From the UHGV virus genome UHGV-1792943: a stretch of DNA of 29,897 nucleotides; one strand, written 5' to 3'. Shown piece after piece: positions 489-28,074 of this stretch; the first letter of the stretch is position 1; each line of letters starts with the position of its first letter. The notes beneath the pieces were generated by a model. The model did not search any database, had not been told where the DNA came from, and worked only from the letters and a program-made list of their open reading frames with translations. A program made the translations under genes and the position numbers. This stretch comes from a virus.

Positions 489-748
489 CAAAATGAACAC
501 TCAGTTAGTGGTATCTGAGAGGGGGGCATTATATTCACTGAATGACGCTTGTGAAGACTCACATGTCATCATTTTGTCCTCAAGAATCAGCTCACATCTT
601 GCGCATTCAAGCGTATTTCTCTTTAAAGCCGTGTTTGGACCATTTTGTTGATACGCGAATTTGGCATCCTCCACGCTCTGAGTGACGAGGTTTACGGACC
701 ACCGGGCCATCATATGCATCCATTTTGTGTGAATGGCATTTAGTCGGG

Positions 749-760
749 AAATAACAAACT
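749..760 (+). promoter_or_regulatory. late-promoter-like conserved element (AAATAACAAACT)
   Basis: One of five related 12-mers placed 38-44 nt upstream of start codons at 802, 4565, 8686, 14801 and 15395. Confidence 0.35.
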
Positions 761-801
761 GGATAAGTTGAAGCCGCGTTAAACGTCATTTCTGGAGGGG
801 T

Positions 802-1128
802 ATGTTTGCAGATTATGAAAATCTGGCTGTAGCAGTCATAACATCCCTGCTGAGTGGAACCGGCGTATTCCTTCTCGGAGTTAGAGACGGGCGCATTTCT
901 GCGTCACTGCTCAACCTCGCGAGTGAATTGTTTACTGCAGTAACTGCCGGGCTTGCGGGGTTTTGGGTGGCTGATAGCTATGAATGGCCGGAAGGCATCA
1001 TTTACTGCGTTGTTCTGATTGCCAGTAACAACGGAAGTGAAATTTTACAGGGCTTGAAGTCCAGAGCTAGTAACGTCTTGAATCTCTTAAGCGTAATAGC
1101 GAGTGGGGGAAAAGGTGGAGAGAAGTAA
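802..1128 (+). CDS. putative holin-like small membrane protein (LydA-like by position)
   Basis: Strong SD GGAGGGG before the ATG; 108 aa with about three hydrophobic helices; first gene of the operon. Confidence 0.5.
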   Translation: MFADYENLAVAVITSLLSGTGVFLLGVRDGRISASLLNLASELFTAVTAGLAGFWVADSYEWPEGIIYCVVLIASNNGSEILQGLKSRASNVLNLLSVIASGGKGGEK

Positions 1129-1574
1129 TGGGTGACTTTGGAAATTATTTCATTTTTATCATGGCATTTGTTGCCGTTATTGACCGTTTCTTATTTCGTC
1201 GCAAGAGTGTTGATATTTTGAGCATTGGCGAAGCTGTAGTGAAAGAGTCTGCTATAGCGTTTCCCGTGTCGCTTCGCGTTAAGCGAAGCTGGGTAAGCAA
1301 TGCACAAATCGAATATTGGTTGCAGGACTTGAAAAATCCATCTGTGGTTATTTCGGGGAAAACAAGACCAGTTGACGCATCAAAACGCGGTGAGAGAGAA
1401 GAATATTTGCTCATCGACACGAAATATCTTGAGCCAGCGAAGTGGGATCTAAAGGTCACATTGACTAACGGTAATTGCCGCCTGAATCCGCTTTATCGCA
1501 TTTTCCCTATCAATGACTGCATAGAACGTCAGTTTATGATTGAAAAGTGTGAAGGAGACTGGAATGTCAAATAA
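1128..1574 (+). CDS. hypothetical protein with N-terminal hydrophobic segment (possible antiholin / LydB-like)
   Basis: ATG overlaps the upstream TAA (TAATG); SD GGTGGAGAG; 148 aa. Confidence 0.5.
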   Translation: MGDFGNYFIFIMAFVAVIDRFLFRRKSVDILSIGEAVVKESAIAFPVSLRVKRSWVSNAQIEYWLQDLKNPSVVISGKTRPVDASKRGEREEYLLIDTKYLEPAKWDLKVTLTNGNCRLNPLYRIFPINDCIERQFMIEKCEGDWNVK

Positions 1575-2181
1575 ATCTAATTATGTTCTTCTTAATTATG
1601 ATGAGTTAAACGAAAAGGGGCTGGCAAAACTCGTCAAAGAAATCGGTAAAGGAGGCTACAAGATAGCGAGGGTGATCCCCGCCAGTAATGGCAGGAAGAA
1701 AGACGGGATCATGACGCGCACGTTTACCCTTATCGGAATCGATGAGCAGACGATGGACGTTCAGGTTAATGATACTGGTGATATTTCTGGTGTAAAACTG
1801 AACGGAAAAATTGTTCCTTTCAAGCCAGTTAAAACGCTGATGGCTTTAGGGCAATCACTGGCTGCTTTATTTAATAAAGGCGCATCATCATTTCAGAAAT
1901 CATTGGCGCGTAAGTTAGCTCGTGCGGCGAAAGATATTGATGATGGGAATAAGAAAATAAAAGGCGTTAAGTCCAATGCGCAGAAACTAGCAGAGGCAAA
2001 GGAATCTCGCGATGCGATCCGCGAGGATATTGAAAGGGCCAAAGAAAAATTAAATCAGGTGCAAGGTAATTCAGACCGCGCAACAAGAGAAACTGAAATC
2101 ATTAGAACCGAGATGGCGCAGGAACTGGCGAAAACTCGCGTATTGAAAGAAGAAATAGCGCGCCTGGAGGAAGATGCATGA
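1564..2181 (+). CDS. hypothetical coiled-coil protein
   Basis: The internal ATG at 1564 has SD AAGGAGA 7 nt upstream, preferred over the track start at 1540. The C-terminal half is rich in charged heptad-like repeats. Confidence 0.55.
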   Translation: MSNKSNYVLLNYDELNEKGLAKLVKEIGKGGYKIARVIPASNGRKKDGIMTRTFTLIGIDEQTMDVQVNDTGDISGVKLNGKIVPFKPVKTLMALGQSLAALFNKGASSFQKSLARKLARAAKDIDDGNKKIKGVKSNAQKLAEAKESRDAIREDIERAKEKLNQVQGNSDRATRETEIIRTEMAQELAKTRVLKEEIARLEEDA

Positions 2182-4103
2182 TAAAGAAACCTATTCGAAT
2201 AAATATCCAGTCCACTTTTGCAGATACGCTCACTGGATATACGCCTAATCGTTGGGTGGCGGAAGATATCACCGAGGATGATTTACTTATCGAGCCTGCG
2301 ACGCTGGAAGATATCGAGCTGGCCTATATGGGCAACGAAATTTTGGTAACTACCAATGAGGCAATGTTCGAAGCTTTAACCACAACAAAATTGCGGTTAG
2401 CGCAAACAATGCGAGCATTTGTCCGGGCGCTTAATCGCGGCCTGAATGGCACTGACATTGCTGCGGGTACGGATGAGGCAGGGGAATATGAAGACGGACG
2501 TAATAGTATCGGTGGGGCAATCATTGGGCGCGTGCGCCGGGTTGCTAATATCCCTGTTGTAACAGCACAAATACCTCTAACCGATGGACAAACGACAAGC
2601 ATAATTTTCCATTCTCCAACCGCAGACGGCACAAGAATTAAAGGGGATGACGAGCTGGTTGCGTTTCAGTTTCTTCTTAACAAAAGAAACGTTACGCATG
2701 TTGTTGCGCCAATCGGTGGGCGTGATGTATCTCTGAGCCAGGTGTGTCAGGCGCTTTCTAACCTCATTGAGCGTAACAGTGCAAAATTCAAAAAAGCAAA
2801 GGAGCGCCAGGACAAAATGAAGGCTGATATTGAGGGGTATCTCAATGAAGCCGACAAGCTGGCAGAAGAACGTTCTGTGCTGATTGAGCAGGTTGAAGAC
2901 GCACAGCGGGGGCTGGCAGAGAAACGCTCAACACTCAATGATATGCAGAATAAATTAGACGCACAAAAAGCCCTTAACGCGGAATTGCAGGCTAAGCGCG
3001 ATAATTTATTGTCAGCTAAGAGCCAAGGAACTAAAGAGCGTGCCTTCAATGATCAACTGCGACACATAAAACATAATCTTGCTACAGAAGGCCAAACAAC
3101 GCTGGATAATGGTGCTGTAGTTAAGTATGTCACGTCAGGCAGTGATAGCTTTGTCACGATTGAGGCACCAGAAGGCAATTTCAGTATTGATGTCAGTGCT
3201 GTTAAAGGTGGGAGTTCAGCGGACGCTGCAACCAAATTACTTAAAGCCTATCGTGAACATAATGCTGATCAATACAAAGTGGATGTGTTGCCGGGCCAGC
3301 CTGAGCCAACTGATCAGCCGCAGCCTGAACAGGAGCCACAACCAGCATCACATCCTGATCCCCTGGAGGTTGGTAAATATCGCTATGCGCTACAATCTCG
3401 CCCGGCGGGTGTTGGTGCGGTTCCTGAAGGAAATAAAGCTGTACTTGACCGTCCTGATCAGGCTGATCCGTATTACGAATATGCTCGTCACGGAATCATT
3501 ACGTATGACCGCAAACTGACAGACGAAGAAGTCAGTCAGTACGAATTACGCTATCTGCCTGATGACGATGAACTGAGAGGGATGGCGAACGAGCTGGTTG
3601 CGTCCAGCATGGTAAAACATATTGATGGCTATGTAGATCTGTTTGGAAGTGACCTGAAAACATTCAAGGCGCAAGTTAAAATTCTTTTCCGCAAAGCGTT
3701 CCCGAACGTGGCATATCCACTTGGTGATGGGGAGAACCTTTTCATTATGGACGTGTATAACGCCCTTCAAAATCATTCAAGCGAAGTAAAAACAGATCCT
3801 GTAGTTGAGCCAGAATCGCAACCTGCACCAGCACCAGAACAGGAGCCGGAGCCAGAAGAAGCGGGTGAATCAGCAAGCGAAGCTGACCAGGAAGCAGATA
3901 AAGCGCTTGAGTACCTGAAATCCGTTCCGGAGCAGTTCACATCCCGCGATCTGACGGTCATAAGTGCTGAACTTGATCATGTGCAGGAAGCTGCAAACGC
4001 TCTTATCAGTGCTGGTCGATATGACGAGAACGAAGCAACTGTAGGTGCAGCCGTTGACTACCTGATCAATATTCTGGCTGAAATTCAGCAGGGAGGTGCT
4101 TAA
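2178..4103 (+). CDS. large virion-associated protein, DarA-like by size and operon position (641 aa)
   Basis: ATGA overlap with the upstream gene; SD GGAGGAAG; two Pro/Glu-rich linkers (PEPTDQPQPEQEPQP and PESQPAPAPEQEPEPEE). Assignment to DarA is by analogy to the P1 darA operon, not by alignment. Confidence 0.5.
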   Translation: MIKKPIRINIQSTFADTLTGYTPNRWVAEDITEDDLLIEPATLEDIELAYMGNEILVTTNEAMFEALTTTKLRLAQTMRAFVRALNRGLNGTDIAAGTDEAGEYEDGRNSIGGAIIGRVRRVANIPVVTAQIPLTDGQTTSIIFHSPTADGTRIKGDDELVAFQFLLNKRNVTHVVAPIGGRDVSLSQVCQALSNLIERNSAKFKKAKERQDKMKADIEGYLNEADKLAEERSVLIEQVEDAQRGLAEKRSTLNDMQNKLDAQKALNAELQAKRDNLLSAKSQGTKERAFNDQLRHIKHNLATEGQTTLDNGAVVKYVTSGSDSFVTIEAPEGNFSIDVSAVKGGSSADAATKLLKAYREHNADQYKVDVLPGQPEPTDQPQPEQEPQPASHPDPLEVGKYRYALQSRPAGVGAVPEGNKAVLDRPDQADPYYEYARHGIITYDRKLTDEEVSQYELRYLPDDDELRGMANELVASSMVKHIDGYVDLFGSDLKTFKAQVKILFRKAFPNVAYPLGDGENLFIMDVYNALQNHSSEVKTDPVVEPESQPAPAPEQEPEPEEAGESASEADQEADKALEYLKSVPEQFTSRDLTVISAELDHVQEAANALISAGRYDENEATVGAAVDYLINILAEIQQGGA

Positions 4104-4471
4104 TGGCTATCTCTGTTTTAGAACGCCTGAAATTAGGTAAAGAGCTATCAGATCTAATGCAGGCGCAGAAAACCGCGCCAGTATTGCAACGCGTCTCAAT
4201 TGGTAAGCAGATTGTTGATGTGATGCTTAAACTGGGGCTTGGGGCTGCGGCCCAATCAGTATCGGATCCGCAGGCGCAGCCAGATACTGTTGCAGGTGAC
4301 ATTCCTAAGATAGTGACAGACTTCCTTGGAGGTGCATTCACAAAGTCCACGCAAATGGAATTTATTGATGCGCTACGTGGGATCTCAAACTATGTAGGCG
4401 AGTTCCTTACGTTGGAACAGGCTAAAGAGCAGACCATAAGCTGGGTGAAAGCCAACGGTTATGCAGGGTAA
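4103..4471 (+). CDS. small protein, DdrA-like by position (122 aa)
   Basis: TAATG overlap with the upstream gene; SD GGGAGG. Confidence 0.5.
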   Translation: MAISVLERLKLGKELSDLMQAQKTAPVLQRVSIGKQIVDVMLKLGLGAAAQSVSDPQAQPDTVAGDIPKIVTDFLGGAFTKSTQMEFIDALRGISNYVGEFLTLEQAKEQTISWVKANGYAG

Positions 4472-4514
4472 TCAAAGGGGCTGAAATGCCCCTTTCACTT
4501 TCCTGTAAGTCCAT

Positions 4515-4526
4515 AAATCACACACT
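4515..4526 (+). promoter_or_regulatory. late-promoter-like conserved element (AAATCACACACT)
   Basis: Sits 38 nt upstream of the TTG start at 4565, after a hairpin at about 4474-4500. Confidence 0.35.
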
Positions 4527-4564
4527 TTTTACACTTCCTGCTTTCTATGTAAGGGGAGTGTATT

Positions 4565-7500
4565 TTGAACAAGTCAGTTACTTCCGCGCTATCCGAAGCA
4601 GCAGACATTAACAGTGTTATTGCGCTGGTTTCTTCATTAGAGAGGCGAGAAACACGCCAGGGGCGCAGTAGTTACGTAGTCACCAGTAAAGGGGCAGAGG
4701 TAAAGACGGCTTTTAAGGTCGTTGATGCCAGCAGTCTGATCATTTCGAACAACCTTGACGGTACGATTAATCCGGCCTTCCCGGAAGAACTCCAGCCACG
4801 TGACCGTACACGGCTATCCAGCAAACTCCAGGTTAACCGTATTGCCTCCAATTTACGCCCGGCACAATTAACGGATTCCGGCATGAGCAGCCACGGAGCG
4901 CCGATAGTTGGTCCGGACAACGTTGTTGAATCCGGCAACGGAAGGAGCATGGGTATCTGGCGTGCCTATGAGCAAGGGCAGGCGGATGAATATCGCCAGT
5001 ACCTGATCGATCATGCAAAAGAGTTTGGTCTGAATCCTGACGACATTTCACAAATGTCTATGCCCGTATTGGTGCGCGAAAGACTCACTGATGTTGATCG
5101 TGCGCAGTTCGCCCGCGATTCAAACATCAGCGATCTGCAAGAGATGGCTGCAAGTGAAAAAGCGTATGCGGATGCGCAATTTCTCACTGAGAGCGTCATG
5201 GCGCTATTTAATCCTTCAGATGATGGGAATCTACTGGCGCGGTCCAATGATGCGTTTATTCGTGCGTTTTTGCGCGAAATAGGTGATACGGCGACGGCAG
5301 GTTTGCTTACAGCCGATGGGCGTCCAACGAAACAACTTATCGACCGCATCCAGAATGCAATTTTTGCCAAAGCGTACAAGGATGAAAGGCTTGTTCGGTT
5401 GGTGGCGGAAGAGCCAGATCCGGAAATGCGTAACATCCTTACCGCATTAAATACGGCAGCCAGCGATTTTGCGCAAATGCAGTCGCTTTCAGGTGATGTT
5501 CACCATGACACGGTAACCGGACTGGTAGACGGTATAGAGCAATTGAATGGTCTGGATAAACAGGCTATTGCCGCGCTACAGGAAGCAATTAACCTTGTTC
5601 GTGAAGCAAAAGATAACGGTCAGGCAGTAGAAGAGGTGATCGCACAGCGTGGATTGTTTGGAGATAGCACTCCGGAAGCAGAAGCGCTTGCTCTGTTTAT
5701 TGTTGCCAACAACCGAAGCGCTAAGCGAATGGGGGCAGCTTTCAAGAAACTGGCGCAAAAAATTAACGATGAACTTATTCACCAGCAACAAGCGTTAGGC
5801 GATATGTTCGGCGGCGGAGATGTCGATCTGCGTAGCATTTTATCTGCCGTTTCTGATGAAATTGAGGCTGAGTATGGCGAAGGTAAAGGGCTTAATTTCG
5901 CCATGTTCGAATCAGTTTCGGGAGATGTCGAACCATACATTTCAAAGCTAATTGCTGATGCGACCAGCGTGGAGGACTTGATCCGAATCGTGAAGGCGTC
6001 AGAAAAAATTAAGGAGTCCGCAAAAAAAATAAAGCGCAATGTATTTTTGGAACTTGGTTTTTATATTCGCAATGTCACCGTTAATGAGATTAAGGCGTGG
6101 GCTAAACGTTATGGATACAGCAACGCTGTGTTAACAACGATGTTATTGTCTTATCAACGCAGCAATTTTTATGCTAACGCACTGCGTGACGCGATTGAAA
6201 AAGGAGATGAAGCTCCTTCACTCGCAGATGAAAGAAATATTGATTGTGACATTGAAACGTTTTGCAATATGTCAGAAGAAGGCGTGCCCGCTGAACAATT
6301 TATACGTGTTTTACATAATGCAGCAAAACATATTCCTGATGACTTTAGCATTGATGAATTGCGCAATGGTTGTCTTGTTTGGTTAGGTAACTATTTAAAA
6401 TCTCCAGCGTCTATTGCAGAGAAAACAGCTTTAAGATTTAGAAAGGAAATGAATAAAGCTGGAAGCGCAGAAGAGATGGTGCGCATAATCCAAAATACTT
6501 TGAAGTTATTCAAAAAGAGCTTGCATAATATCAACGATATTATGGCGGCTGGTAGGAAAATAACAGCCAGCGTCGGAGTTAGCTCCGAACTAACGGCAGA
6601 GGAGATCGCTGATGCGTATATTGAGACACTTGTCAGGCTTAAGGAGATAGTGGAATTAGCAGAGCATTCCTCATATTACGGAATCAAGGAGCGCGTTGAC
6701 TTTACTATAGAACAAATCAATAAAGTTAGGTCAAATAAGGAAAAACTCACTGACTACCTTGCTGAGGTTTTGCACCAGAATGATCATGGGATTGGATATG
6801 ATCTGAAAAAAATGCTTGTTTTTAATCTGGACATACCGGAAGACTTGCAAGCAGAATTATATGAAATAGCTTCATTAACACGTGGACAAAAAGCCTATCC
6901 TAATGCGCTTGAAAATGTAGTACATAAAAAAGTCAGAGCCGCATTTGACATGATTCTTGAATCGTCAAATGTGTCACATGACCAGTCTAAGGAATGGAGT
7001 CGTGGGATTGCTATTTCTGATGAAGCAGAGCAGTTAAGTGGTCACGATAATGAAACTTTCTCCCGTAAAGCATACAGTATTCGCGAGACAATTGAAAAAG
7101 CCTATATTATTTCAGGAGGGACTTTATCTACATTAAAAAATATTAACCACAAGAACAATGTTCGTGCTTTTGCAAGTCGAAATGGGAATATAACAATTGA
7201 TGCTAATAGTGATCATGAGCGTGTATTATGGCATGAAATAGGTCACCATATAGAACATTCAAATCCCCATCTATTGGAGAGGGCCAAAGCCTTCATTAAA
7301 TCAAAAACTAACGGTAAAGTTTCTTATCATAATATTGGTAGCCGTGGCAGTGCTGAGTATTTGGTGCGAACCGACCTAAGTCATGGATATATGTCTAAAA
7401 TTTATATGGAAAATACGGTAAGTTCTGTCAGCGGCAGATTTATATCAAAGCCACCTGCATTAAGCAATTGCAGGGCGACTGAGATTTTTTCTATGGCCTT

Positions 7501-7606
7501 GCAGATGTATGCCGATCCTGAGCAGGCGACTAACTCTGTATTAAACAATGACGGCGTGCTGGAATTTTTCTTGGGATGTATGAAGGAGTTGCAAAATGAA
7601 GTATAG
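4565..7606 (+). CDS. 1013-aa putative internal virion protein (DdrB-like by position) with ParB/Srx-like N-terminal motifs and a C-terminal HEIGH zincin-like motif
   Basis: TTG start with SD AAGGGGAG. N-terminal region reads ELQPRDR ... GAPIVGPDNVVESGNGRSMG (ParB-type spacing). HEIGHHIEH is encoded at 7232-7258. Confidence 0.6.
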   Translation: MNKSVTSALSEAADINSVIALVSSLERRETRQGRSSYVVTSKGAEVKTAFKVVDASSLIISNNLDGTINPAFPEELQPRDRTRLSSKLQVNRIASNLRPAQLTDSGMSSHGAPIVGPDNVVESGNGRSMGIWRAYEQGQADEYRQYLIDHAKEFGLNPDDISQMSMPVLVRERLTDVDRAQFARDSNISDLQEMAASEKAYADAQFLTESVMALFNPSDDGNLLARSNDAFIRAFLREIGDTATAGLLTADGRPTKQLIDRIQNAIFAKAYKDERLVRLVAEEPDPEMRNILTALNTAASDFAQMQSLSGDVHHDTVTGLVDGIEQLNGLDKQAIAALQEAINLVREAKDNGQAVEEVIAQRGLFGDSTPEAEALALFIVANNRSAKRMGAAFKKLAQKINDELIHQQQALGDMFGGGDVDLRSILSAVSDEIEAEYGEGKGLNFAMFESVSGDVEPYISKLIADATSVEDLIRIVKASEKIKESAKKIKRNVFLELGFYIRNVTVNEIKAWAKRYGYSNAVLTTMLLSYQRSNFYANALRDAIEKGDEAPSLADERNIDCDIETFCNMSEEGVPAEQFIRVLHNAAKHIPDDFSIDELRNGCLVWLGNYLKSPASIAEKTALRFRKEMNKAGSAEEMVRIIQNTLKLFKKSLHNINDIMAAGRKITASVGVSSELTAEEIADAYIETLVRLKEIVELAEHSSYYGIKERVDFTIEQINKVRSNKEKLTDYLAEVLHQNDHGIGYDLKKMLVFNLDIPEDLQAELYEIASLTRGQKAYPNALENVVHKKVRAAFDMILESSNVSHDQSKEWSRGIAISDEAEQLSGHDNETFSRKAYSIRETIEKAYIISGGTLSTLKNINHKNNVRAFASRNGNITIDANSDHERVLWHEIGHHIEHSNPHLLERAKAFIKSKTNGKVSYHNIGSRGSAEYLVRTDLSHGYMSKIYMENTVSSVSGRFISKPPALSNCRATEIFSMALQMYADPEQATNSVLNNDGVLEFFLGCMKELQNEV

Positions 7607-7889
7607 CATTGTGAGTCCCGCTGGGATTAGAGGGATTGTTGAATGCTCTGATGACGGCACATTGCGTATATTTGAAGGCGATATTTCGGAAGAAAATATT
7701 GCGCAAGATTTACGCTTTATCAACACAAATTCCGCAATGGGGATCGTGAATACCATTCATGCCGATGGGGTGTTTGTTCTGCGGAGCCTGGAAACTGTTG
7801 GCTGGGAGGTTGAGTGGCCAGAGGTGGAAGGAGATCCTGACGACGAAGACGATACTGGCGAATCATATCAAGACATTGATGTGAATTGA
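7596..7889 (+). CDS. small acidic protein, last gene of the operon (Hdf-like by position)
   Basis: Overlaps the upstream stop by 11 nt; acidic C-terminus; followed by a strong terminator. Confidence 0.5.
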   Translation: MKYSIVSPAGIRGIVECSDDGTLRIFEGDISEENIAQDLRFINTNSAMGIVNTIHADGVFVLRSLETVGWEVEWPEVEGDPDDEDDTGESYQDIDVN

Positions 7890-7902
7890 TATGATTGATA
7901 AT

Positions 7903-7925
7903 CCCGCCGTCAGGCGGGTTTTTTT
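7903..7925 (+). terminator. rho-independent terminator
   Basis: cccgcc-gtca-ggcggg followed by TTTTTTT. Confidence 0.8.
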
Positions 7926-8187
7926 AGCGTGGTGTAAGAATAAATTCAGGATGCTCTCCAGCAAGCAATAACAGGTACTCAAATTCACCAGCCATAAGGC
8001 GTCTCGGTTTATTTCTATCTTCTTTGAATTGCCAAGCCCGGAGTTGATACCCCATTTTGTGGGCTAACTCCGTTTGCGTTAGCCCCATTCGCTGGCGGAT
8101 TTCAATTATGGTTTCCGGGGTGTTTGGTGGGAGTTGTTTCACAATATGCCCTTTGCCAATGCTGTGATTCGCAACGAAGTATATCAT
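7924..8187 (-). CDS. XRE-family HTH DNA-binding protein
   Basis: HTH segment MGLTQTELAHKMGYQLRAWQ; lies 12 nt downstream of the preceding minus-strand ORF. Confidence 0.55.
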   Translation of the reverse strand: MIYFVANHSIGKGHIVKQLPPNTPETIIEIRQRMGLTQTELAHKMGYQLRAWQFKEDRNKPRRLMAGEFEYLLLLAGEHPEFILTPR

Positions 8188-8199
8188 CGTTGAATCGAT

Positions 8200-8502
8200 T
8201 CACAGAGCTGCGCCGAACAGACCGCAGCATGGCATCCCTTCATCACAGTACCTGGCCCATTCTTTTTGGCATTCTTCTGTTTGCGCGTATTGGCTTAACG
8301 CGTCATCCAGCATATCCCAGGCCTTATAGGAATCCTCTGCAACGCTAAACAAAGTCCTGCCTTCCCGGCTTAGAATTTGCAGATTGTAAATGTTTTCATT
8401 GCTCAGACATGCGTGGCTGATATGCATGTAAACCGACCATGCAGGAACTCGATTTTTGATAGCAAGTTGGTGTAATTTGGAGTTAATTAAAGAGCTTTTC
8501 AT
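8200..8502 (-). CDS. hypothetical protein, upstream partner of the HTH gene
   Basis: Start taken at the internal Met preceded by SD GGAGA (the track ORF extends to 8553); about 100 aa; no recognisable motif. Confidence 0.4.
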   Translation of the reverse strand: MKSSLINSKLHQLAIKNRVPAWSVYMHISHACLSNENIYNLQILSREGRTLFSVAEDSYKAWDMLDDALSQYAQTEECQKEWARYCDEGMPCCGLFGAAL

Positions 8503-8633
8503 GGAATTTCTCCGCAGCAAAGTGGTCAACTTTTTTAATCTTAATACGCACAATGTGCATATTCAAGTTTTATTCTTCACTTTGTTACGAGAGGGGCCAG
8601 CCAATATTTCTAGTTGAAAAGATCCATCATCAA

Positions 8634-8645
8634 AAATCACATACT
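8634..8645 (+). promoter_or_regulatory. late-promoter-like conserved element (AAATCACATACT)
   Basis: Sits 40 nt upstream of the ATG at 8686. Confidence 0.35.
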
Positions 8646-8685
8646 GACTATGCTGCCGCAAACTGAAAACATTTCGCGGTGACTC

Positions 8686-10371
8686 ATGGCAACGAAAGAC
8701 AAAAACAAAGGCTTTCTGTCGGCATTGAAGAAAGCCTTCAACAGTGGCGATGTCACGCCTGCTGATCCGGTCGTTTTTACAAGCGGTCATAGTGTCGTTG
8801 CGCGTTCTGGTCTGTCTGCTTTACGTCCGGGTATCCTGGGTGGCAATAGCGATGGCATGACAAGCGCGGCAGATACAGTATCAATTTCGGCAGAACTGCC
8901 CGGCGACCGCCTGCAAAAATACAACATACTGGAGACGATGGCGAAAAGTCCGACTATCTCCACAGCATTAAACATTCACATTGCGCATTCTCTGGCTCCA
9001 TCAAAAAAAACAGGCCTCGCATTTATTCTCGCTCCGAAAAATGGGGCAGATAAGGAGGCTGTAAGTCGATGTGAGGAATTGACCGCTGATTTAAGCTCAA
9101 TGATTAATGATGGCCTGCCATCGTGGGCCATGATCATGGCTATTTTCGGTGTGTCGTATATCCGTCCATATGCAGAGCAAGGGAAGGGGATAACTGGAAT
9201 TGAGTCGAGCTATTACACGCTCCCTCATTTCGTTCAGGAGTTTTATCGCGGTAGCCAACTTGTCGGATTCAGCGGTGATTACATTCTGGATACGCATACT
9301 TTGCGCAGAGTTATAACCGAACCATGGAATCTGGTTTCCATGAAAAACCCGTACTGGACGCCTCAGCATAATGTAATGCCAGTAACTTACGGCACTAAAG
9401 GCTATTCCTTGCTTAGTGAACAGCAGGACAAGCCGTTAATGGAGACGCAGAACTACGGTACGTCATTTCTTGAATACAGTTATGAACCCTACCTGAATTT
9501 ATGTGCCGCGCTTGCTGCGCTGAAAGCAACGCGAAACAACGCTGCAAAAATTGATCGCCTGATTGCACTCACAACGAACACGATAGATCCGGTAAATGCG
9601 GCGAATTATACGCGCGGGGTCAGCCAGGCACTGAAGCGTCATAGCGACCTCGTAGCGCAACGGTCGATTAATTCTAATGCTCTCCCATCTGTACTTAACC
9701 ATCTGATACCCGTCATGGGGGATGGGAAGAACGGGATCACCATTGATACGCAATCTATACCCGCAGATATCAGTGGTATCGAAGACGTTATGTTTCATCT
9801 CCGACAGCTCGCGGCAAGCCTCGGTATTGACGCAACAATGCTTGGCTGGGCTGATCAGATGAGTGGTGGACTTGGAGAAGGCGGTTGGCAGCAAACAGCT
9901 ATCCAGGCCGCCTTACGCGCGAACTGGATCAGACAGGCCGCCCAGCGGACTATTTATCGGCTTCATGACATTCACCTCGCTTATAAATACGGGAAGGTTT
10001 ACACCGAAAAAAACCGTCCTTATGACGTGCAATTCAACTCAATGAACACAGCTATCCAGGAAGAGGAAAACCGAGAGCTGGATGCGCGCGCCAACTTCGT
10101 AGCTGTCATCTCGCAAATAATGGACCAGATCCAGAACAACCCGAAACTGGCGGGTAGCGACGCGTTTATGCGTTATCTGTTCACCGAACAGCTTTGTATC
10201 GACGATGACACTCTCAACGTAATGATCAAAGAGTTTAAAGCGAATGAATCAGAGCAAAACAACGAGCATGGTATGTACGAATCCGCGCCGTTGTCGTCCG
10301 GTGACGATCCGGAAAACTGGACGCAAGAACAATTAATCAACTTTGCAAAATTTGTGATGAGCAATAATTAA
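8686..10371 (+). CDS. putative portal / head structural protein (561 aa)
   Basis: Size and position immediately upstream of a protease/scaffold-like gene; no decisive motif seen. Confidence 0.4.
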   Translation: MATKDKNKGFLSALKKAFNSGDVTPADPVVFTSGHSVVARSGLSALRPGILGGNSDGMTSAADTVSISAELPGDRLQKYNILETMAKSPTISTALNIHIAHSLAPSKKTGLAFILAPKNGADKEAVSRCEELTADLSSMINDGLPSWAMIMAIFGVSYIRPYAEQGKGITGIESSYYTLPHFVQEFYRGSQLVGFSGDYILDTHTLRRVITEPWNLVSMKNPYWTPQHNVMPVTYGTKGYSLLSEQQDKPLMETQNYGTSFLEYSYEPYLNLCAALAALKATRNNAAKIDRLIALTTNTIDPVNAANYTRGVSQALKRHSDLVAQRSINSNALPSVLNHLIPVMGDGKNGITIDTQSIPADISGIEDVMFHLRQLAASLGIDATMLGWADQMSGGLGEGGWQQTAIQAALRANWIRQAAQRTIYRLHDIHLAYKYGKVYTEKNRPYDVQFNSMNTAIQEEENRELDARANFVAVISQIMDQIQNNPKLAGSDAFMRYLFTEQLCIDDDTLNVMIKEFKANESEQNNEHGMYESAPLSSGDDPENWTQEQLINFAKFVMSNN

Positions 10372-10384
10372 CCGGAGGGAAATA

Positions 10385-11383
10385 ATGCAATCACTGAATA
10401 CCGTTACGGATCGCTTCTCCCTGGTAGAGAAAATCCGCAAACACACACCTCAGAACAATCGCAATTACGTTATCCAGTCGGTACGAGACACATTCAACTC
10501 GCCAGAAACAAAAGAGCGTATCGCACTGGGTGAGATGTATGGTTATTACGGTCATGGTCGCCGGGCGATGCACTATAACAAAACGAAAAGCCTGGACTTG
10601 CCGGAAGTCTCTGTTGTGATGGTAGATGGGAAGCCTGTTGTATTGGAGAACGTGCCGTCAAACAGGACTATCGACATTTCAATTGACGACAACGGCATTG
10701 TTACCCATACACAGGAAATACTGGATACGGACACCGGACGTATTGTTCAGGGTATGATTAATTCTGGCGCAGGTGGTTGGTCATGGGCTACATCTGGTCC
10801 AGATTACTCTGTATCCCTGGTAAAGTCTTTTCACGGTTTTGATTACGTAACTGTGCCTAACTATATCAGCCTCGACAAGAAAAGCCTGATGCTTGAATCA
10901 GCAGAAGAACGCGACGCGGCGATTCATGCGGCACTTATCGAACAAGGTTTTACCGATAATGCTGCTACGGATCTGGTTCACCACTTTTCAGCAATGAAGA
11001 GTCAGCAAGCCATATTCGAATCAGCACAACGTGAAGTTCTGGAGTCGGAACTGATACATCTTGAAGTGGAAAATATGCAGCTTCGCGACAAACTACGCGA
11101 CCAGGCCGCGATGATGGAAAGCCAGGGGGAGAACGCGAAGAAATGCCGCCGTATTTTGCGTGATGCTATCCAGGAAATGCCTGTTTTTATCAGCGCAGAA
11201 CAGCGCCGGGCGCTCTGCCGTATGCAGTCAGAGGATGATGCACGCATTGTCGCAGCGATGCTTGAATCCCTGGGGGCTAATGCCACTTATGGTCTGCCAA
11301 TATCAGCCAATAAACAACAAGAAATACCGGTGAAAGAGAACAAGACGGTGACTCCGCTGATCTTTGTGTCTAAGAGGATGTGA
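10385..11383 (+). CDS. putative head maturation protease or scaffold protein (332 aa)
   Basis: SD GGAGGG; coiled-coil C-terminal half; position after the portal-like gene. Confidence 0.35.
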   Translation: MQSLNTVTDRFSLVEKIRKHTPQNNRNYVIQSVRDTFNSPETKERIALGEMYGYYGHGRRAMHYNKTKSLDLPEVSVVMVDGKPVVLENVPSNRTIDISIDDNGIVTHTQEILDTDTGRIVQGMINSGAGGWSWATSGPDYSVSLVKSFHGFDYVTVPNYISLDKKSLMLESAEERDAAIHAALIEQGFTDNAATDLVHHFSAMKSQQAIFESAQREVLESELIHLEVENMQLRDKLRDQAAMMESQGENAKKCRRILRDAIQEMPVFISAEQRRALCRMQSEDDARIVAAMLESLGANATYGLPISANKQQEIPVKENKTVTPLIFVSKRM

Positions 11384-11400
11384 GCTAAAAGCTAGCTTAA

Positions 11401-11410
11401 TTTTCTAACA
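11401..11410. promoter_or_regulatory. operator-like site (TTTTCTAACA, minus-orientation copy of TGTTAGAAAA)
   Basis: Member of a dispersed motif family with eight sites; about 170 nt upstream of the 11583 gene. Confidence 0.4.
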
Positions 11411-11497
11411 CAGTGTGTTTTTATACACTGTTGATCCGACGGCACGTGATCGAGTAGGATCGCGGTCACTGCTCCGGTAGCGACTGCCAAAAAAAGC

Positions 11498-11523
11498 AAA
11501 AGCCGCTGAGTAGCGGCTTTTGG
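11498..11523 (+). terminator. rho-independent terminator
   Basis: aagccgct-gagt-agcggctt followed by TTTT. Confidence 0.7.
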
Positions 11524-11582
11524 GTGTATAAATCCACTGGCATAGATTTATACGGTAGATAGATTTTTCACGGAACTATCTG

Positions 11583-12545
11583 GTGAGTATTTTAAATTCA
11601 GTTTCAGTTACTTTCAACACTTCTGAGTATAAAAACAACACTGAATACCACAAAAAAATCAAAGGTCATCAGTTGAGTTTTTTTGCTCGTCATAGCGGTT
11701 TTCTTTCCCCTTCACATAGCGCCATTATTGCCGAGTTCGCCAACCTGGCAGGAGCTACCGATGAATACATGATCCGTCGCTCATATGCGGATATGTCCGA
11801 GATTACAGGACGCAGTATTTCTACTGTGCGCCGGGCATTTGCCGAAGCGACGAAGTGCGGAATGCTTGTTAAGCAGCATCAGGTAGCGAATAACAATGCT
11901 CAGGTGTGTAACGTGTACCGGTTTACAACACAATTTCTCCACTTCATTCATGTAGCAATGGAGATAGGGAGTAAGCAGGGCATCAAATTTGCCAACGCCA
12001 CAAAACTGGTTAAGCAGTTGATTTCAAAGGTTCGTTATTTTTTTGAAACTGGGAACCCCCTGTTCAAATTGAACAAGTCCCCCCATGTTCAAAATGAACA
12101 GCCAATAGAAAATAAGAGTCACTCTATAGCCAAAAGAAGAGAAAGATCATGCGCGGTTCAGCCAAAGGCTTCACCAGCAGATAGTTCTCAAGCGGATAAT
12201 GGGGGGCTGGATAAAAAACCAGTAACCAGGGAAGAACATACCAACCACTGCCTGGCGGCGGCAAAAGCGAGAGCTGCAAAGCGTCGTTCAGATGAGGGGC
12301 ACGCAAAACGGCAGGCTCTGTATCGTACCGCTGAAAAGCTGGCAAAAAAATTTGCATGGATACGTAGTGCCGCTACAGCAGTGAATAAGCCTAAACAATC
12401 CAGTGCCCTGGATTTCTCAATGGATTATTCTGGCTCCCAGGGGTGTGCAACCATTGGTGAAGCCTTTGACCTGATGAAACAGCGTGGCTATCGGTCTGAA
12501 TTTGACCGGGAAGACTGGTCAATTCCGGAGGGCTTTCGGGGATGA
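11583..12545 (+). CDS. putative DNA-binding protein, possibly a replication initiator (RepL-like by context)
   Basis: GTG start, exact start uncertain. HTH-like segment MSEITGRSISTVRRAFAEA; basic C-terminal region; two 15-bp palindromes lie inside the coding sequence. Confidence 0.4.
   Translation: MSILNSVSVTFNTSEYKNNTEYHKKIKGHQLSFFARHSGFLSPSHSAIIAEFANLAGATDEYMIRRSYADMSEITGRSISTVRRAFAEATKCGMLVKQHQVANNNAQVCNVYRFTTQFLHFIHVAMEIGSKQGIKFANATKLVKQLISKVRYFFETGNPLFKLNKSPHVQNEQPIENKSHSIAKRRERSCAVQPKASPADSSQADNGGLDKKPVTREEHTNHCLAAAKARAAKRRSDEGHAKRQALYRTAEKLAKKFAWIRSAATAVNKPKQSSALDFSMDYSGSQGCATIGEAFDLMKQRGYRSEFDREDWSIPEGFRG
12061..12101. repeat. two near-identical 15-bp palindromes (TGTTCAAATTGAACA and TGTTCAAAATGAACA), each preceded by a C5-7 tract, inside the 11583-12545 CDS
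   Basis: Read directly at 12061-12075 and 12087-12101. Confidence 0.8.
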
Positions 12546-12602
12546 TGTTGCGATTGACTGTACAATAACCGTGCGGCGGGAATTTCATCGCTCGAAAATG
12601 TA

Positions 12603-12631
12603 TGTTAGAAAATTAAATTGATGTTTCTAAT
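12603..12631. promoter_or_regulatory. operator-like inverted pair (TGTTAGAAAA, 11 nt, TTTCTAAT)
   Basis: Upstream of the immI-like module. Confidence 0.45.
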
Positions 12632-12684
12632 CAAGAATGTATGATTTATATCGTCACTAAAAAACAGCATCTGATAAAAATTCT

Positions 12685-12698
12685 GTTGATCTTTCTAA
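12685..12698. promoter_or_regulatory. operator-like half site (TTGATCTTTCTAAT)
   Basis: Shares the TTGAT-N-TTTCTAAT core with the 12618-12631 half site. Confidence 0.4.
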
Positions 12699-12839
12699 TG
12701 TTCAGGCTTATATTCATGCCGTCGTAGCAAATTCTGCGACCGGGTTTAGCAGCCTGAATGTTAGTGCGGACAACCGCAGATATCCGATATTGCGGTATTT
12801 TTGTGTCCGTAAAACCGCGTTACGCCCAAATTATGGTGG

Positions 12840-12912
12840 GGCGTGATGGGGAGGCTTCGGCCTGCTGGTTTCACTAACGCCAGTCTGCTAACCCCGTCAC
12901 GTCCTGCCACCT
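12840..12912 (+). ncRNA. c4-like antisense regulatory RNA (boundaries approximate)
   Basis: Loops CACTAAC (12872-12878) and CTGCTAAC (12885-12892) are antiparallel complements of GTTTAGCAG and GTTAGTG. Those targets occur at 12746-12768 and again at 12913-12950, where GTTAGTG overlaps the SD of the downstream ORF. A UUCG tetraloop hairpin is present. Confidence 0.5.
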
Positions 12913-12961
12913 GTTTAGCAGCGGGTAGCAGGTTGTTAAACCTGTTAGTGAGGCCGTAACT

Positions 12962-13186
12962 ATGGTTAATGCCAATCCTTGCTCACGTCCAGAATTCATC
13001 TGGCGTTTTCACTCCCTGCAAAAACACTGCGATCACTTCGCAATTGCCGCAACTGAAAAAGAAGCCCGTTCTCTGATCCCTGATCAGTATGGCGTTCTCA
13101 CTGGTCGTTTCTCTACTTCCCCACAACCAAACACCAATCCCTGGTATCGCAATATTACCAATCCCGGCATTGCGGAGGCTCACTGA
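12962..13186 (+). CDS. icd: Icd-like small ORF translationally coupled to the antirepressor gene
   Basis: 74 aa; its SD is masked by the target repeat of the c4-like RNA; stop overlaps the ant start (TGATG). Architecture as in P1 immI. Confidence 0.5.
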   Translation: MVNANPCSRPEFIWRFHSLQKHCDHFAIAATEKEARSLIPDQYGVLTGRFSTSPQPNTNPWYRNITNPGIAEAH

Positions 13187-13893
13187 TGGATATCTGCATT
13201 CTCGAAAAGCCATCAATGACCAGCATTGAGATCGCGGAGCTGGTGGGAAAACGTCATGACAATGTGAAACGCACTATTGAGACATTAGACAAAGGTGGCG
13301 TTATTGTTCGTCCTCAAATTGAGGTTTTCGAAAAAATCAATAACTTAGGACTACGACGTAGTGTTGAGGCTTACGTCTTCGAAGGCGAGCAAAGCAAGCG
13401 CGATAGCATTATCGTCGTCGCGCAGCTCTCTCCCGAATTCACCGCCCGGCTGGTGGACCGCTGGCGCGAACTGGAAGAACAAGTACGCCAGCCGTTGACC
13501 GAAATAGAGATGATCGCTGCAATGGCTGCAAATGCAGTTCAGCAGCAAAAGCGGCTTCATGTTGTTGAGTCAAAGGTTAGCCAGGTTGCTGAAACCGTCG
13601 AGCAGATCAAGAAGGGCAACATGCCAGAAGGTTACATTGGCTATCGCCAGTTAGCGGCGAAATGTGGCCTGACTGAAGCCAAATGCCGTAACCTGGTCAA
13701 CGCTTACCGGATTCCCACAGATACGCATGAGTTTTTGACGCCAGAGGGGGTATTGTCGCGTCGTACTATTGTGGCCTTATCTCCCTTCATGAATGCCTTT
13801 ACCCTGATGATGTCGGAGGCTGAACACCGAGGAAAACGCTGGTATCACCCAAGGATGGGACAATTCCAGGTGATCGGTTGGGGAGGCGAGTGA
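13186..13893 (+). CDS. ant: antirepressor (Rha / Ant family)
   Basis: N-terminal SIEIAELVGKRHDNVKRTIETL is typical of Rha/antirepressor N-domains; SD GGAGG. Confidence 0.65.
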   Translation: MDICILEKPSMTSIEIAELVGKRHDNVKRTIETLDKGGVIVRPQIEVFEKINNLGLRRSVEAYVFEGEQSKRDSIIVVAQLSPEFTARLVDRWRELEEQVRQPLTEIEMIAAMAANAVQQQKRLHVVESKVSQVAETVEQIKKGNMPEGYIGYRQLAAKCGLTEAKCRNLVNAYRIPTDTHEFLTPEGVLSRRTIVALSPFMNAFTLMMSEAEHRGKRWYHPRMGQFQVIGWGGE

Positions 13894-14090
13894 TGGACAT
13901 CATGCAGGCGGTAAAAAAAATCAGGGAAGGACAGGCTGAAGTGTGCCGCCGTAAAGCATGGAGTGTTGGTATATGGATCTGGCCTGATAATTGCTCTACT
14001 ACCGGATGGTTTTGTATTAATGGATGCCAGATCCGGGAAGTCGATTTATCGACGGCGGATGCAGTCGGTAATGATTGGATCGTAACTTGA
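13893..14090 (+). CDS. small DUF2829 (Tad2)-like protein, 65 aa
   Basis: TGATG coupling to ant; SD GGGGAGG. Carries G-x3-V-x-RR-x2-W near the N-terminus and NDWIV at the C-terminus, shared with two other ORFs in the window. Confidence 0.45.
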   Translation: MDIMQAVKKIREGQAEVCRRKAWSVGIWIWPDNCSTTGWFCINGCQIREVDLSTADAVGNDWIVT

Positions 14091-14098
14091 AGTGTGAT

Positions 14099-14123
14099 GC
14101 CCCGGCCTGGCCGGGGCTTTTTC
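14099..14123 (+). terminator. rho-independent terminator
   Basis: gccccgg-cctgg-ccggggc followed by TTTTT. Confidence 0.75.
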
Positions 14124-14613
14124 ATGCCTCATTAGTTGAGGTTGCTGCGTCGCCGACAGGTAACAGAGCTGTATTGCGTGGTTCGCCAGCAGGCCAGCGA
14201 TAGCCAGACACTCTTGATGTTGGGAATGCGCGAATATTAACAGCATCCCCCTGGTTCCCACCCAAGACAAGCAGATCGCCATTGGCGCGGCGTCCGACAA
14301 CAAAGCCTACATGCCCACCGCCTGCGCGAGTAAATACAACGATACATCCGTATGCCGGTGTATCTAATTTCTCGCCCCAATCCAGATAGGATTTTGCCGA
14401 CTCAAATCTTGTTGAGCGGATGCCTACACGTTCCAGCATTGCACCGACAAATGCTGCGCACCACGGCGTTTCATCGTCTTTAATTCCACCGCGCTTAATA
14501 TCCCGCCAGAACTGGACGATCTCAGGATTGTGTTTCGCTCCTTTTATTTCGGTGACTCCAATATTTTTACGGGCTTCAATAAGCCAGCGAGGTTCATTAT
14601 TGATCATAATCAT
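14122..14613 (-). CDS. CHAP / NlpC-P60-like peptidoglycan hydrolase (TIGR02594-like)
   Basis: Candidate catalytic Cys in PWCAAFVGAM and His in GGGHVGFVVG. The true start may be the third codon (14607), which has better SD spacing. Confidence 0.55.
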   Translation of the reverse strand: MIMINNEPRWLIEARKNIGVTEIKGAKHNPEIVQFWRDIKRGGIKDDETPWCAAFVGAMLERVGIRSTRFESAKSYLDWGEKLDTPAYGCIVVFTRAGGGHVGFVVGRRANGDLLVLGGNQGDAVNIRAFPTSRVSGYRWPAGEPRNTALLPVGDAATSTNEA

Positions 14614-14744
14614 GCTCCGAATGAAAAAAGAGCAATAACTATGTTGAGAATGTGATTTCTATTACACCAAACATTATTAAACGGCATTCATCTTTAACTT
14701 TATTCAATGTATTATCTAACAGAAAAGTTAAGTTGCGCTAAGTT

Positions 14745-14756
14745 AATGATAACACT
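14745..14756 (+). promoter_or_regulatory. late-promoter-like conserved element (AATGATAACACT)
   Basis: Sits 44 nt upstream of the ATG at 14801. Confidence 0.3.
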
Positions 14757-14800
14757 GGTTATTATTGGTTTGCGTTATTTATTTGAGAAAAGAGAAAGTT

Positions 14801-15298
14801 ATGAAAAAAGCAATATTAGCGACTATTGTTTGTGCATTTGCATTATCAGGATGCGCTCCGGTTCAGACATACAACAAGCCTCAGCAAGTAAAACAGTTTG
14901 TTAAACGCCCAGCATTCCCTGTAGAGGAATATCAGGCATTGCCGAAAAAAGGCACAGGTAAGGTTAAGGGGGAATTATTTGGAGTAACTCGCGGAGGGGA
15001 TGTGAAGATTGGTGCTGGCTCCAATATCATACTGCGTCCGTATACTTCATATATCAAAAATACCCCCAAAATTGATTACGACACTCAGACCTTAGAAATA
15101 ATCGACGGCAGGGTTGCGGAATATGACAGAACTGTCCTGACTGATGCTCAAGGCAAATTTGAGTTCGAAAACGTACCACCAGGCCAGTATGAAGTGATTG
15201 GTTCGTTCAGTTGGTATGCTGGAAATTTCCCGCAAATCGTTCTTCTGAACAAAATCATTACCGTTAAGAACGGTGATGTTATCCAGGTTCAACCATGA
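14801..15298 (+). CDS. lipoprotein with a carboxypeptidase-regulatory-like beta-sandwich motif
   Basis: Signal peptide with lipobox LSGC; TDAQGKFEFENVPPGQYEV motif. Start taken at the internal ATG of the track ORF. Confidence 0.65.
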   Translation: MKKAILATIVCAFALSGCAPVQTYNKPQQVKQFVKRPAFPVEEYQALPKKGTGKVKGELFGVTRGGDVKIGAGSNIILRPYTSYIKNTPKIDYDTQTLEIIDGRVAEYDRTVLTDAQGKFEFENVPPGQYEVIGSFSWYAGNFPQIVLLNKIITVKNGDVIQVQP

Positions 15299-15338
15299 TC
15301 CCCTTTTGAGTAAGAACCTTCGGGGTGTGATTCTGCGA

Positions 15339-15350
15339 AATTAACACACT
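15339..15350 (+). promoter_or_regulatory. late-promoter-like conserved element (AATTAACACACT)
   Basis: Sits 44 nt upstream of the start at 15395. Confidence 0.35.
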
Positions 15351-15394
15351 CCATACCCTCTCAAACCGTACCGCTTAAGGCGGATTTAACGGTT

Positions 15395-24211: not shown

Positions 24212-24221
24212 TGTTAGAAAA
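24212..24221. promoter_or_regulatory. operator-like site (TGTTAGAAAA) within a promoter-like region
   Basis: TTGAAA, 16 nt, TATGTT arrangement overlaps the site; 25 nt upstream of the ATG at 24246. Confidence 0.45.
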
Positions 24222-24245
24222 CTAATTTCAAGAAAGGGAACAAAC

Positions 24246-25456: not shown

Positions 25457-25485
25457 TGTTAGAAAATTAAAATTGTTTTTCTAAC
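25457..25485. promoter_or_regulatory. operator-like perfect inverted repeat (TGTTAGAAAA, 9 nt, TTTTCTAACA)
   Basis: Read directly; the best palindromic copy of the motif family. Confidence 0.5.
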
Positions 25486-25607
25486 ATATTGATTATGTAG
25501 TTAACTTAACATAGAATTTTTCGTGCTGGTGGGGAGCTTCCCATGTCGCTTGCGGGTTTGATAGTCACTTCATTGTCTTTCCCCACCAGCATCAAACAAT
25601 TTTAAGT

Positions 25608-25617
25608 GTTAGAAAGT
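25608..25617. promoter_or_regulatory. operator-like site (TGTTAGAAAG)
   Basis: Member of the same family. Confidence 0.35.
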
Positions 25618-25827
25618 AAATTTTAAGGTAAGGGAAAGCTCCGGCACCGTGCAAATACATGCCCGGCAGGTTTAGTGCGTAAAGTGGTTTCAGCGAGAGC
25701 ATTTTACGGAGTAAACGACAGTGACTTGAGCCACGGAAGGTCTTTTTATGGTGTTCATTGATGATGATCTGGCAGTGAGTATGTTAAGTGGGCCAGGCTG
25801 CATCGGGTCATCATCAGTGCACATCCT

Positions 25828-26799: not shown

Positions 26800-26876
26800 G
26801 ATGGTGTAGCTCAGTAGGATAGAGCAGCAGCCTTCTAAGCTGTCGGTCGGTGGTTCGAATCCACCCACCATCGCCA
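26800..26876 (+). tRNA. tRNA-Arg (anticodon TCT)
   Basis: Full cloverleaf folded by hand: acceptor gatggtg / caccatc, anticodon loop cttctaa, T-loop ttcgaat, encoded CCA. Confidence 0.8.
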
Positions 26877-26882
26877 ATTTAG

Positions 26883-26968
26883 GGGAGTTAGTCCGTAGGG
26901 GTAGCGGGGTAGACTGTAAATCTACTGTCATTGCGACTCGGATGGTTCGACTCCATCACTCCCCACCA
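26883..26968 (+). tRNA. tRNA-Tyr-like (anticodon GTA), long variable arm, slightly irregular D-arm
   Basis: Acceptor ggggagt / actcccc, anticodon stem gtaga / tctac with loop ctgtaaa, 15-nt variable arm, T-loop ttcgact, CCA. Confidence 0.5.
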
Positions 26969-26972
26969 AATT

Positions 26973-27048
26973 GCCGGTTTAGCTCAGTTGGTAGAGCGCC
27001 TGCCTTGTAAGCAGGATGTCAGCGGTTCGAGTCCGTTAACCGGCACCA
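26973..27048 (+). tRNA. tRNA-Thr (anticodon TGT)
   Basis: Acceptor gccggtt / aaccggc, anticodon loop cttgtaa, T-loop ttcgagt, CCA. Confidence 0.8.
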
Positions 27049-27050
27049 AC

Positions 27051-28065: not shown

Positions 28066-28074
28066 CAGTAATCT

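Follow-up and report, generated by a model that had tools for sequence, protein, structure and literature searches.

Putative late promoters of a D6-type phage-plasmid resemble the P1 late promoters in layout and carry a different box

In the virus genome UHGV-1792943, of which the whole stretch of 29,897 nucleotides (nt) was analysed and is called the window here, a composite sequence element occurs at five sites in front of genes for lysis and virion functions. These five elements are very probably late promoters of a D6-type phage-plasmid of the P1 family, with a box that would be the half recognized by the late promoter activator Lpa. The full element consists of this 12-base pair (bp) box, AAAT(C/A)ACAnACT, followed by three nucleotides and the -10 hexamer TAnnnT. 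The box is centred near -22; with the hexamer placed at -12 to -7, it would extend from about -27 to about -16. Within the hexamer, the A and the T needed by sigma-70 are invariant across the sites. A -35 region is lacking, as a scan with the sigma-70 consensus gave no promoter at any of the five sites. The sites are listed below with two scores each, the first obtained with a 22-nt matrix from 11 sites of Escherichia phage D6 (the 11-site matrix) and the second with the independent matrix described further below.

748-769 (+): putative late promoter of the lydA operon; box AAATAACAAACT at 749-760, spacer GGA, -10 hexamer TAAGTT at 764-769, ATG at 802; 19.5 and 16.5 bits; D6 orthologue at 31511-31532(-); P1 has LPdar annotated at the same gene.
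4514-4535 (+): putative late promoter of ddrB; box AAATCACACACT at 4515-4526, spacer TTT, -10 hexamer TACACT at 4530-4535, TTG at 4565; 22.3 and 17.3 bits; D6 orthologue at 27727-27748(-).
8633-8654 (+): putative late promoter of prt-pro; box AAATCACATACT at 8634-8645, spacer GAC, -10 hexamer TATGCT at 8649-8654, ATG at 8686; 25.7 and 18.7 bits; P1 has LPpro annotated at the same gene.
14638-14659 (-): putative late promoter of the CHAP hydrolase gene; box AAATCACATTCT at 14658..14647, spacer CAA, -10 hexamer CATAGT at 14643..14638, ATG at 14613; 22.6 and 20.2 bits (the top match of the independent matrix); D6 orthologue at 19214-19235(+).
15338-15359 (+): putative late promoter of darB, ulx and the following genes; box AATTAACACACT at 15339-15350, spacer CCA, -10 hexamer TACCCT at 15354-15359, TTG at 15395; 20.7 and 17.7 bits; D6 orthologue at 19171-19192(-).

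The preliminary description of this DNA had reported five related 12-mers at 749, 4515, 8634, 14745 and 15339. All of them are present at these positions and four (749, 4515, 8634 and 15339) are true members of the element, whereas the 12-mer at 14745, in front of a lipoprotein-like gene, is not. A further true site, on the minus strand ahead of the CHAP hydrolase gene (14638-14659), had been missed, and the element comprises the box together with the -10 hexamer instead of a bare 12-mer. The constant distance of 38-44 nt to the start codons, which had also been pointed out, is confirmed by the measured gaps of 41 (749), 38 (4515), 40 (8634), 44 (14745) and 44 nt (15339), with the gap of the lipoprotein-like gene counted to the ATG at 14801. 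From the hexamer, the start codons are reached after 32 nt in lydA, 29 nt in ddrB, 31 nt in prt, 24 nt in the hydrolase gene and 35 nt in darB. The suggested restriction to lysis and virion genes agrees with the corrected set of sites, which precede lydA, ddrB, prt, the hydrolase gene pgh, and darB.

Alone, the 12-mer is at chance level: a search for AAATCACACACT with up to 3 mismatches yielded 30 matches in the window, among them the hydrolase 12-mer at 14647-14658(-), with 29.05 expected. All five reported 12-mers have a TAnnnT sequence exactly 3 nt downstream (TAAGTT, TACACT, TATGCT, TATTAT and TACCCT). The significant unit is the box plus the -10 hexamer and not the free-standing 12-mer. 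The exact pattern ACAnACT-N3-TAnnnT has four matches in the window, all on the plus strand and all at sites from the preliminary description. When one mismatch is allowed, 14 matches are found versus 4.85 expected, a number reached in none of 100 shuffles. With the 11-site matrix, the five window sites score 19.5-25.7 bits and the next best match 12.9 bits; at a threshold of at least 14 bits there are five window matches versus a shuffle mean of 0.29 and a shuffle maximum of 2. Because circularity was to be avoided, the independent matrix was built from the seven D6 sites of genes that are absent from the window (R, pmgB, 23, 7, 26, upfC and mat). It places the same five sites on top with 16.5-20.2 bits, followed by a match with 14.2 bits. 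In 500 shuffles scanned with this matrix at a threshold of at least 16.5 bits, 467 contained no match, 32 contained one, and a single shuffle contained two.

Among the counter-observations to its proposal of a late promoter, the preliminary description had named a lack of the motif upstream of late genes in other parts of the genome. On the complete D6 genome, which was assembled and then scanned with the matrix, the motif is present before late genes across the genome and absent elsewhere. There are 12 sites with at least 18 bits, while the next best match has 12.1 bits, and all 12 are intergenic and co-oriented with the next gene. An annotated co-oriented start lies 15-60 nt downstream of 11 of the 12 sites, a property shared by 3% of positions (P ~2e-16). 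The twelfth site is located 137 nt before the annotated start of mat and reaches 24.5 bits even though it was outside the training set. The genes served in D6 are lydA, ddrB, prt, the hydrolase gene, darB, R (tail fibre operon), pmgB (sit operon), 23 (major capsid), 26, 7, upfC, and mat, and the same 12 gene positions are matched in a second complete genome, NZ_LR890273. In both genomes, all sites but one precede their late gene by 20-50 nt. The element also emerges when 7-mers between -70 and -10 of the D6 genes are counted blind to the motif: AAATCAC ranks first (9 of 54 regions, P = 4e-9) and AATCACA next (P = 3e-8), followed by words of the repressor operator.

This distribution closely resembles that of the late promoters of P1. 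The P1 record AF234172 holds 11 annotated late promoters, each composed of a 9-bp '-22 region', 4 nt, and a -10 hexamer. Read out, these promoters consist of AAGTGACTT, AAGTTACTT or AAATGACTA, four nucleotides, and TAnnnT. The protein that binds to the P1 repeat is Lpa (PMC10695390), which is described, in the passage of PMC1891329 that cites Hansen 2003, as a sequence-specific DNA-binding protein acting with SspA. In P1 as in the D6-type genomes, a TAnnnT -10 hexamer is directly preceded by a box centred near -22 and a -35 region is absent; late promoters are found at mat, prt, lydA, R, the sit operon, 23, and 26; and the gene of a PF25716 activator is located behind C1-type operators and next to pacA. 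Thus, seven D6 sites precede orthologues of P1 late-promoter genes, namely mat (LPmat), prt (LPpro), lydA (LPdar), R (LPs), the sit operon (LPsit), 23 (LP23), and 26 (LP26), and the D6-type hydrolase site parallels LPlyz of P1 by function. Relative to P1, additional promoters precede ddrB, darB, gene 7, and upfC in the D6-type genomes, and hot and pacA have none. The main difference concerns the box itself. In P1, AAGTGACTT is a 9-bp inverted repeat separated from the hexamer by 4 bp, while the D6-type box of 12 bp is non-palindromic and separated by 3 bp. Accordingly, a P1-type matrix made from eight P1 late promoters has no match with at least 10 bits in the window and none with at least 16 bits around prt in D6-like loci, and a search of the window for the P1-type pattern AAGTnACTT-N3-5-TAnnnT gave nothing before any late gene. 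The D6-type element therefore has the -10 hexamer without a -35 region, the element near -22, the placement at late operons, and the Lpa-family activator of a P1-type late promoter, but its box is not the 9-bp inverted repeat. Since every testable feature fits except for the sequence of the box and its spacing, the D6-type element can be regarded as a variant of the P1-type element with a different specificity.

The presumed activator is encoded at the end of the window, behind operators of the C1 type:

29559-29572 (+) and 29575-29588 (-): inverted pair of C1-type operators upstream of lpa, found as matches to the operator pattern.
29666-29896 (+): 5' part of lpa (77 codons); the window ends at 29897, within the gene.

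The lpa fragment differs in one residue from the full Lpa of 130 amino acids (aa) encoded on the IMG/VR contig 2579778606_000002. The Lpa proteins of D6 and P1 each score ~192 bits against the Pfam family PF25716 (BPP1_LPA; cut-off 35) and share 31% identity. A search of the PDB by sequence found no structure for the Lpa family. P1 has the same arrangement of operator and promoter (Olpa/Plpa) before lpa. The operator pair upstream of lpa therefore suggests that the activator is under the control of the prophage repressor. The C1-type operator class, TGTTAGAAAAnTAA, has 11 matches in the window versus 0.97 expected, some of them as inverted pairs:

11397-11410, 12603-12616, 24212-24225, 25457-25486, 25607-25620 and 29559-29588: matches to the C1-type operator, before repL, c4/icd, pmgS, and lpa.

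The early genes (repL, c4/icd/ant, and lpa) carry these operators instead of the box, and the late-type element is in fact separate from the operator class, as had been proposed.

The connection between box and activator can be followed across related phages in 80 loci encoding portal relatives, which were taken from IMG/VR. D6-like contigs with 94-100% Prt identity have 3-5 D6-type sites within ~20 kilobases, or 2 where the contig is among the shortest or poorest; P1-type sites are absent from them but for one match on contig L010. In a lineage with 75% Prt identity, six D6-type sites precede lydA-, ddrB-, prt-, hydrolase-, and darB-like genes, although the intergenic DNA is otherwise unalignable. 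Lineages with 62-66% Prt identity have a box variant, AAATTACAAACTCCATAC, and P1-like contigs with 49-51% Prt identity have 2-3 P1-type sites and zero D6-type sites. An open reading frame (ORF) of at least 50 aa starts within 120 nt, mostly 17-44 nt, of 147 of the 151 matches with at least 15 bits across the loci. On the 20 contigs that have both a portal locus and an lpa locus, the type of the box tracks the type of Lpa in every case (15 D6-type and 5 P1-type). Around prt, the 15 contigs with D6-type Lpa have 3-5 D6-type boxes and lack P1-type ones; the 5 with P1-type Lpa have 2-3 P1-type boxes and lack D6-type ones. Pattern scans recovered no lpa gene from the lineages whose Prt identity is 75%, 63%, or 56%.

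From P1 and the comparative pattern, the following sequence of events can be proposed. In the prophage state, a C1-type repressor would hold lpa off via the operator pair at 29559-29588. After induction, Lpa would be made and bind to the box at -22 and, by analogy with P1, would recruit sigma-70 RNA polymerase to the -10-only promoter together with the host co-activator SspA. Transcription would start ~7 nt past the hexamer, resulting in leaders of roughly 17-28 nt. Binding by Lpa, the requirement for SspA, the transcription start, and the late timing are all transferred from P1 and from this pattern and should be read as such. The constant distance to the start codons would follow from the fixed layout of box, 3 nt, hexamer, and ~7 nt plus a short leader. 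Conserved hairpins in the leaders were considered as another cause of the constant spacing and rejected, as the leaders of lydA, ddrB, and prt fold no better than shuffled sequences. A predicted folding better than shuffles was observed for the leaders of darB (15360-15403(+), z = -3.2) and of the hydrolase gene (14605-14637(-), z = -2.1), and both hairpins include the ribosome-binding region.

Several observations weigh against the assignment of the five elements as Lpa-dependent late promoters. The support is comparative throughout. The geometry of recognition may differ from that in P1, because the D6-type box has no inverted repeat and its spacing to the hexamer is 3 and not 4 bp. The co-variation of box and Lpa on 20 contigs is to be counted as one evolutionary contrast and not as 20, because only two clades are involved. 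Three hexamers in D6 or the window begin with C or G and not with T (CATAGT, CATACT, and GAAAAT). In addition, the scores of single sites with the independent matrix (16.5-20.2 bits) overlap the shuffle maximum of 19.2 bits; the significance lies in the number and the placement of the sites and not in the scores of single sites. A mere chance similarity of short A-rich upstream sequences, to which the 12-mer by itself would conform with its 30 matches at up to 3 mismatches versus 29 expected, is nevertheless effectively refuted by the composite-motif statistics, by where the sites lie in whole genomes, and by their conservation across lineages; its probability is negligible. The proposal of the preliminary description that the element is a late promoter read by a phage-encoded activator finds support in the comparison, namely in the P1 architecture, the set of genes, the presence of lpa, and the co-variation.

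If the elements are promoters, the box might still be read by another factor, such as a different phage regulator or the host protein CRP, or the -10 hexamer alone might drive weak constitutive transcription. Such a reading gains from the fact that the link between Lpa and the box is indirect and that the box is unlike the Lpa site of P1; moreover, the reverse complement of the box contains TGTGAT, which resembles a CRP half site. A CRP site, however, is generally known to need two half sites and to be centred at -41.5 or -61.5 and not at -22. Position, spacing, and gene set match the Lpa-dependent promoters of P1, the type of the box follows the type of Lpa on all 20 contigs with both loci, and Lpa is the only transcription factor that was matched to late control in this analysis, so that a different reader of the box appears improbable. 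The box could also serve mainly as a linker for recombination at module boundaries during mosaic exchange and not as a signal for transcription. Homology between the window and D6 begins at 747, the 5' edge of the lydA box, and at 15336, the 5' edge of the darB box, the similarity to D6 and to further D6-like contigs sets in again. The prt box (8633) is also kept in the lineage whose Prt identity is 75%, and in D6-like contigs it is joined by four upstream contexts unrelated to each other. Breakpoints of this kind are expected at the edges of promoters if operons move together with their promoters, and a linker would have no need for a fixed spacing of 3 nt, a fixed strand, and a distance of 24-35 nt to the start codon. 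A role mainly in recombination is therefore very improbable, and late promoters with a box for Lpa are the explanation followed here.

Among other systems with positive control, the regulator PigR of Francisella, which functions with MglA-SspA, is similar in that a DNA-bound activator is thought to act via an SspA-family protein on sigma-70 RNA polymerase, and Lpa/SspA of P1 is the cited precedent for it (PMC1891329). Both its activator and its DNA element are unrelated, however, and what it regulates is chromosomal virulence; for the D6-type element, a dependence on SspA is suggested by analogy. The late genes of P2/P4 (Ogr/Delta), Mu (C protein), and T4 (gp55/gp33) are likewise positively controlled and have promoters without a normal -35 region. 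The site of Ogr/Delta is a dyad near -55, the C protein of Mu binds around -30 to -55, and T4 replaces sigma-70 and uses TATAAATA. None of the late promoters of P2/P4, Mu, and T4 is known to have a box abutting the -10 hexamer at -22. Positive control of phage late genes at promoters without a normal -35 region has been stated as a general feature (PMC10695390).

Each of the two phage types also contains a single promoter-like element of the other type, placed ahead of a gene for a small membrane protein. In the D6-type genomes, one perfect P1-type late promoter is present, TGACAAGTGACTT tcat TAATCT, with 24.6 bits:

71092-71114 (+) in D6 (MF356679) and 64231-64253 (-) in NZ_LR890273: P1-type promoter, next to the promoter of gene 26.

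It lies ~55 nt before an ORF for a hydrophobic protein of 44 aa (orf77 in D6, phrog_38362). This promoter is part of a block of ~110 nt without any difference between D6 and NZ_LR890273, against ~10% divergence in the flanking genes, and the block has no nucleotide homology to P1. Conversely, P1 (AF234172, locus L002) has a D6-type element at 31571-31592(-), GAAATCACAAAGT aca TACCGT, which scores 21.3 bits and precedes the holin-like gene lydC by 38 nt; the P1 record annotates no promoter for lydC. It can be imagined that the D6-type and P1-type combinations of box and Lpa represent two orthogonal pairs and that the foreign-type promoters act as cross-phage sensors, firing a membrane-damaging gene upon superinfection by a phage of the other class, but this idea is speculative and unlikely to be correct. 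The foreign-type promoters may equally be relics of past exchange. In P1, an unannotated match to the P1-type matrix is found near the start of gene 7 at ~76780-76802(-) (CAACAAGTGACTGGTGATAACCT, 20.8 bits), and gene 7 of the D6-type genomes is preceded by a D6-type promoter.

For a relative of P1, the element is of an ordinary and expected kind, and the known picture of P1-type late regulation is unchanged. The value of the finding lies in the distinct box, the clean co-variation of activator and box, and the two cross-type promoters. For annotating late operons across a large group of phage-plasmids, AAAT[C/A]ACAnACT-N3-TAnnnT can serve as a promoter model; promoter features are missing from the D6 records. 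Searches of the full-text literature found no description of a D6-type late-promoter consensus, though the D6 genome paper (Gilcrease & Casjens 2018) may already hold one. With at least two classes of DNA specificity on the same promoter layout, the Lpa family would offer a natural experiment on how Lpa reads DNA and a possible source of orthogonal activator-promoter pairs for engineering. In addition, late operons in this group appear to be exchanged as units that begin exactly at the promoter.

D6 is a P1-related plasmid prophage. Between positions 747 and 25000, the window has ~91% identity to Escherichia phage D6 (MF356679); its closest complete relative is the E. coli plasmid NZ_LR890273, which is 97% identical. 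The IMG/VR contig 2579778606_000002 is ~99.9% identical in the stretch compared, and 616 plasmid records, mostly from E. coli and Salmonella, match the window. Judged by these similarities, the window is part of a D6-like phage-plasmid of the P1 family. With the annotation of D6 as a guide, the following gene order was read:

Start of the window: end of a tail-fibre assembly gene.
802 (+): start of lydA (holin), followed by lydB, hdf, darA, and ddrA in one operon.
4565 (+): TTG start of ddrB, 1013 aa, with a ddrB-ParB domain (Pfam PF18763); followed by hxr.
Between hxr and prt (-): two ORFs.
8686 (+): ATG start of prt (portal), followed by pro (head protease).
After pro: repL, then c4/icd/ant.
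14122-14613 (-): CHAP peptidoglycan hydrolase gene (pgh), with a CHAP domain and matches to endolysin/tail-lysozyme PHROGs.
15395 (+): TTG start of darB, 2283 aa, followed by ulx, pmgM, pmgR, and pmgS.
26800-28150: five tRNA genes (Arg-TCT, Tyr-GTA, Thr-TGT, Ser-TGA, and Met-CAT).

Within the tRNA cluster, several ORFs listed by the program overlap tRNA genes.

Between the divergent late promoters of the hydrolase gene and darB, a moron-like insertion of 0.68 kilobases (14660-15337) is present that is absent from D6. Its ORF (ATG at 14801, 14801-15298) encodes a lipoprotein-like protein of 165 aa with a signal-peptide-like start, which belongs to phrog_14789 and has weak matches to carboxypeptidase-regulatory domains. 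The candidate element before this gene, at 14745-14765(+) (AATGATAACACT ggt TATTAT), was rejected, as it scores 3.4 bits and four near-invariant positions of the box are mismatched. In locus L029, which holds the one diverged orthologue available, three substitutions fall on motif positions within 21 nt and the upstream 130 nt are identical. The consensus scan found no convincing sigma-70 promoter for the lipoprotein-like gene.

A candidate before pmgS at 24191 (AAATTGCATACT aa TAAAAT) was rejected as well; it has 4.3 bits and the wrong spacing, and it adjoins a C1-type operator. In the P1 record, pmgR/S are annotated as C1-controlled sigma-70 genes. A weaker resemblance to the box is seen directly before lpa:

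29614-29635 (+): sequence weakly similar to the box and hexamer (TATTAACAAGCT gat TATCAT), located 31 nt ahead of the start codon of lpa.

With the two matrices, this sequence reaches 12.2 and 13.0 bits, which is within the range of the shuffles, and its equivalent in D6 has 11.1 bits. It may represent the -10 region of the own promoter of lpa or a weak autoregulation.

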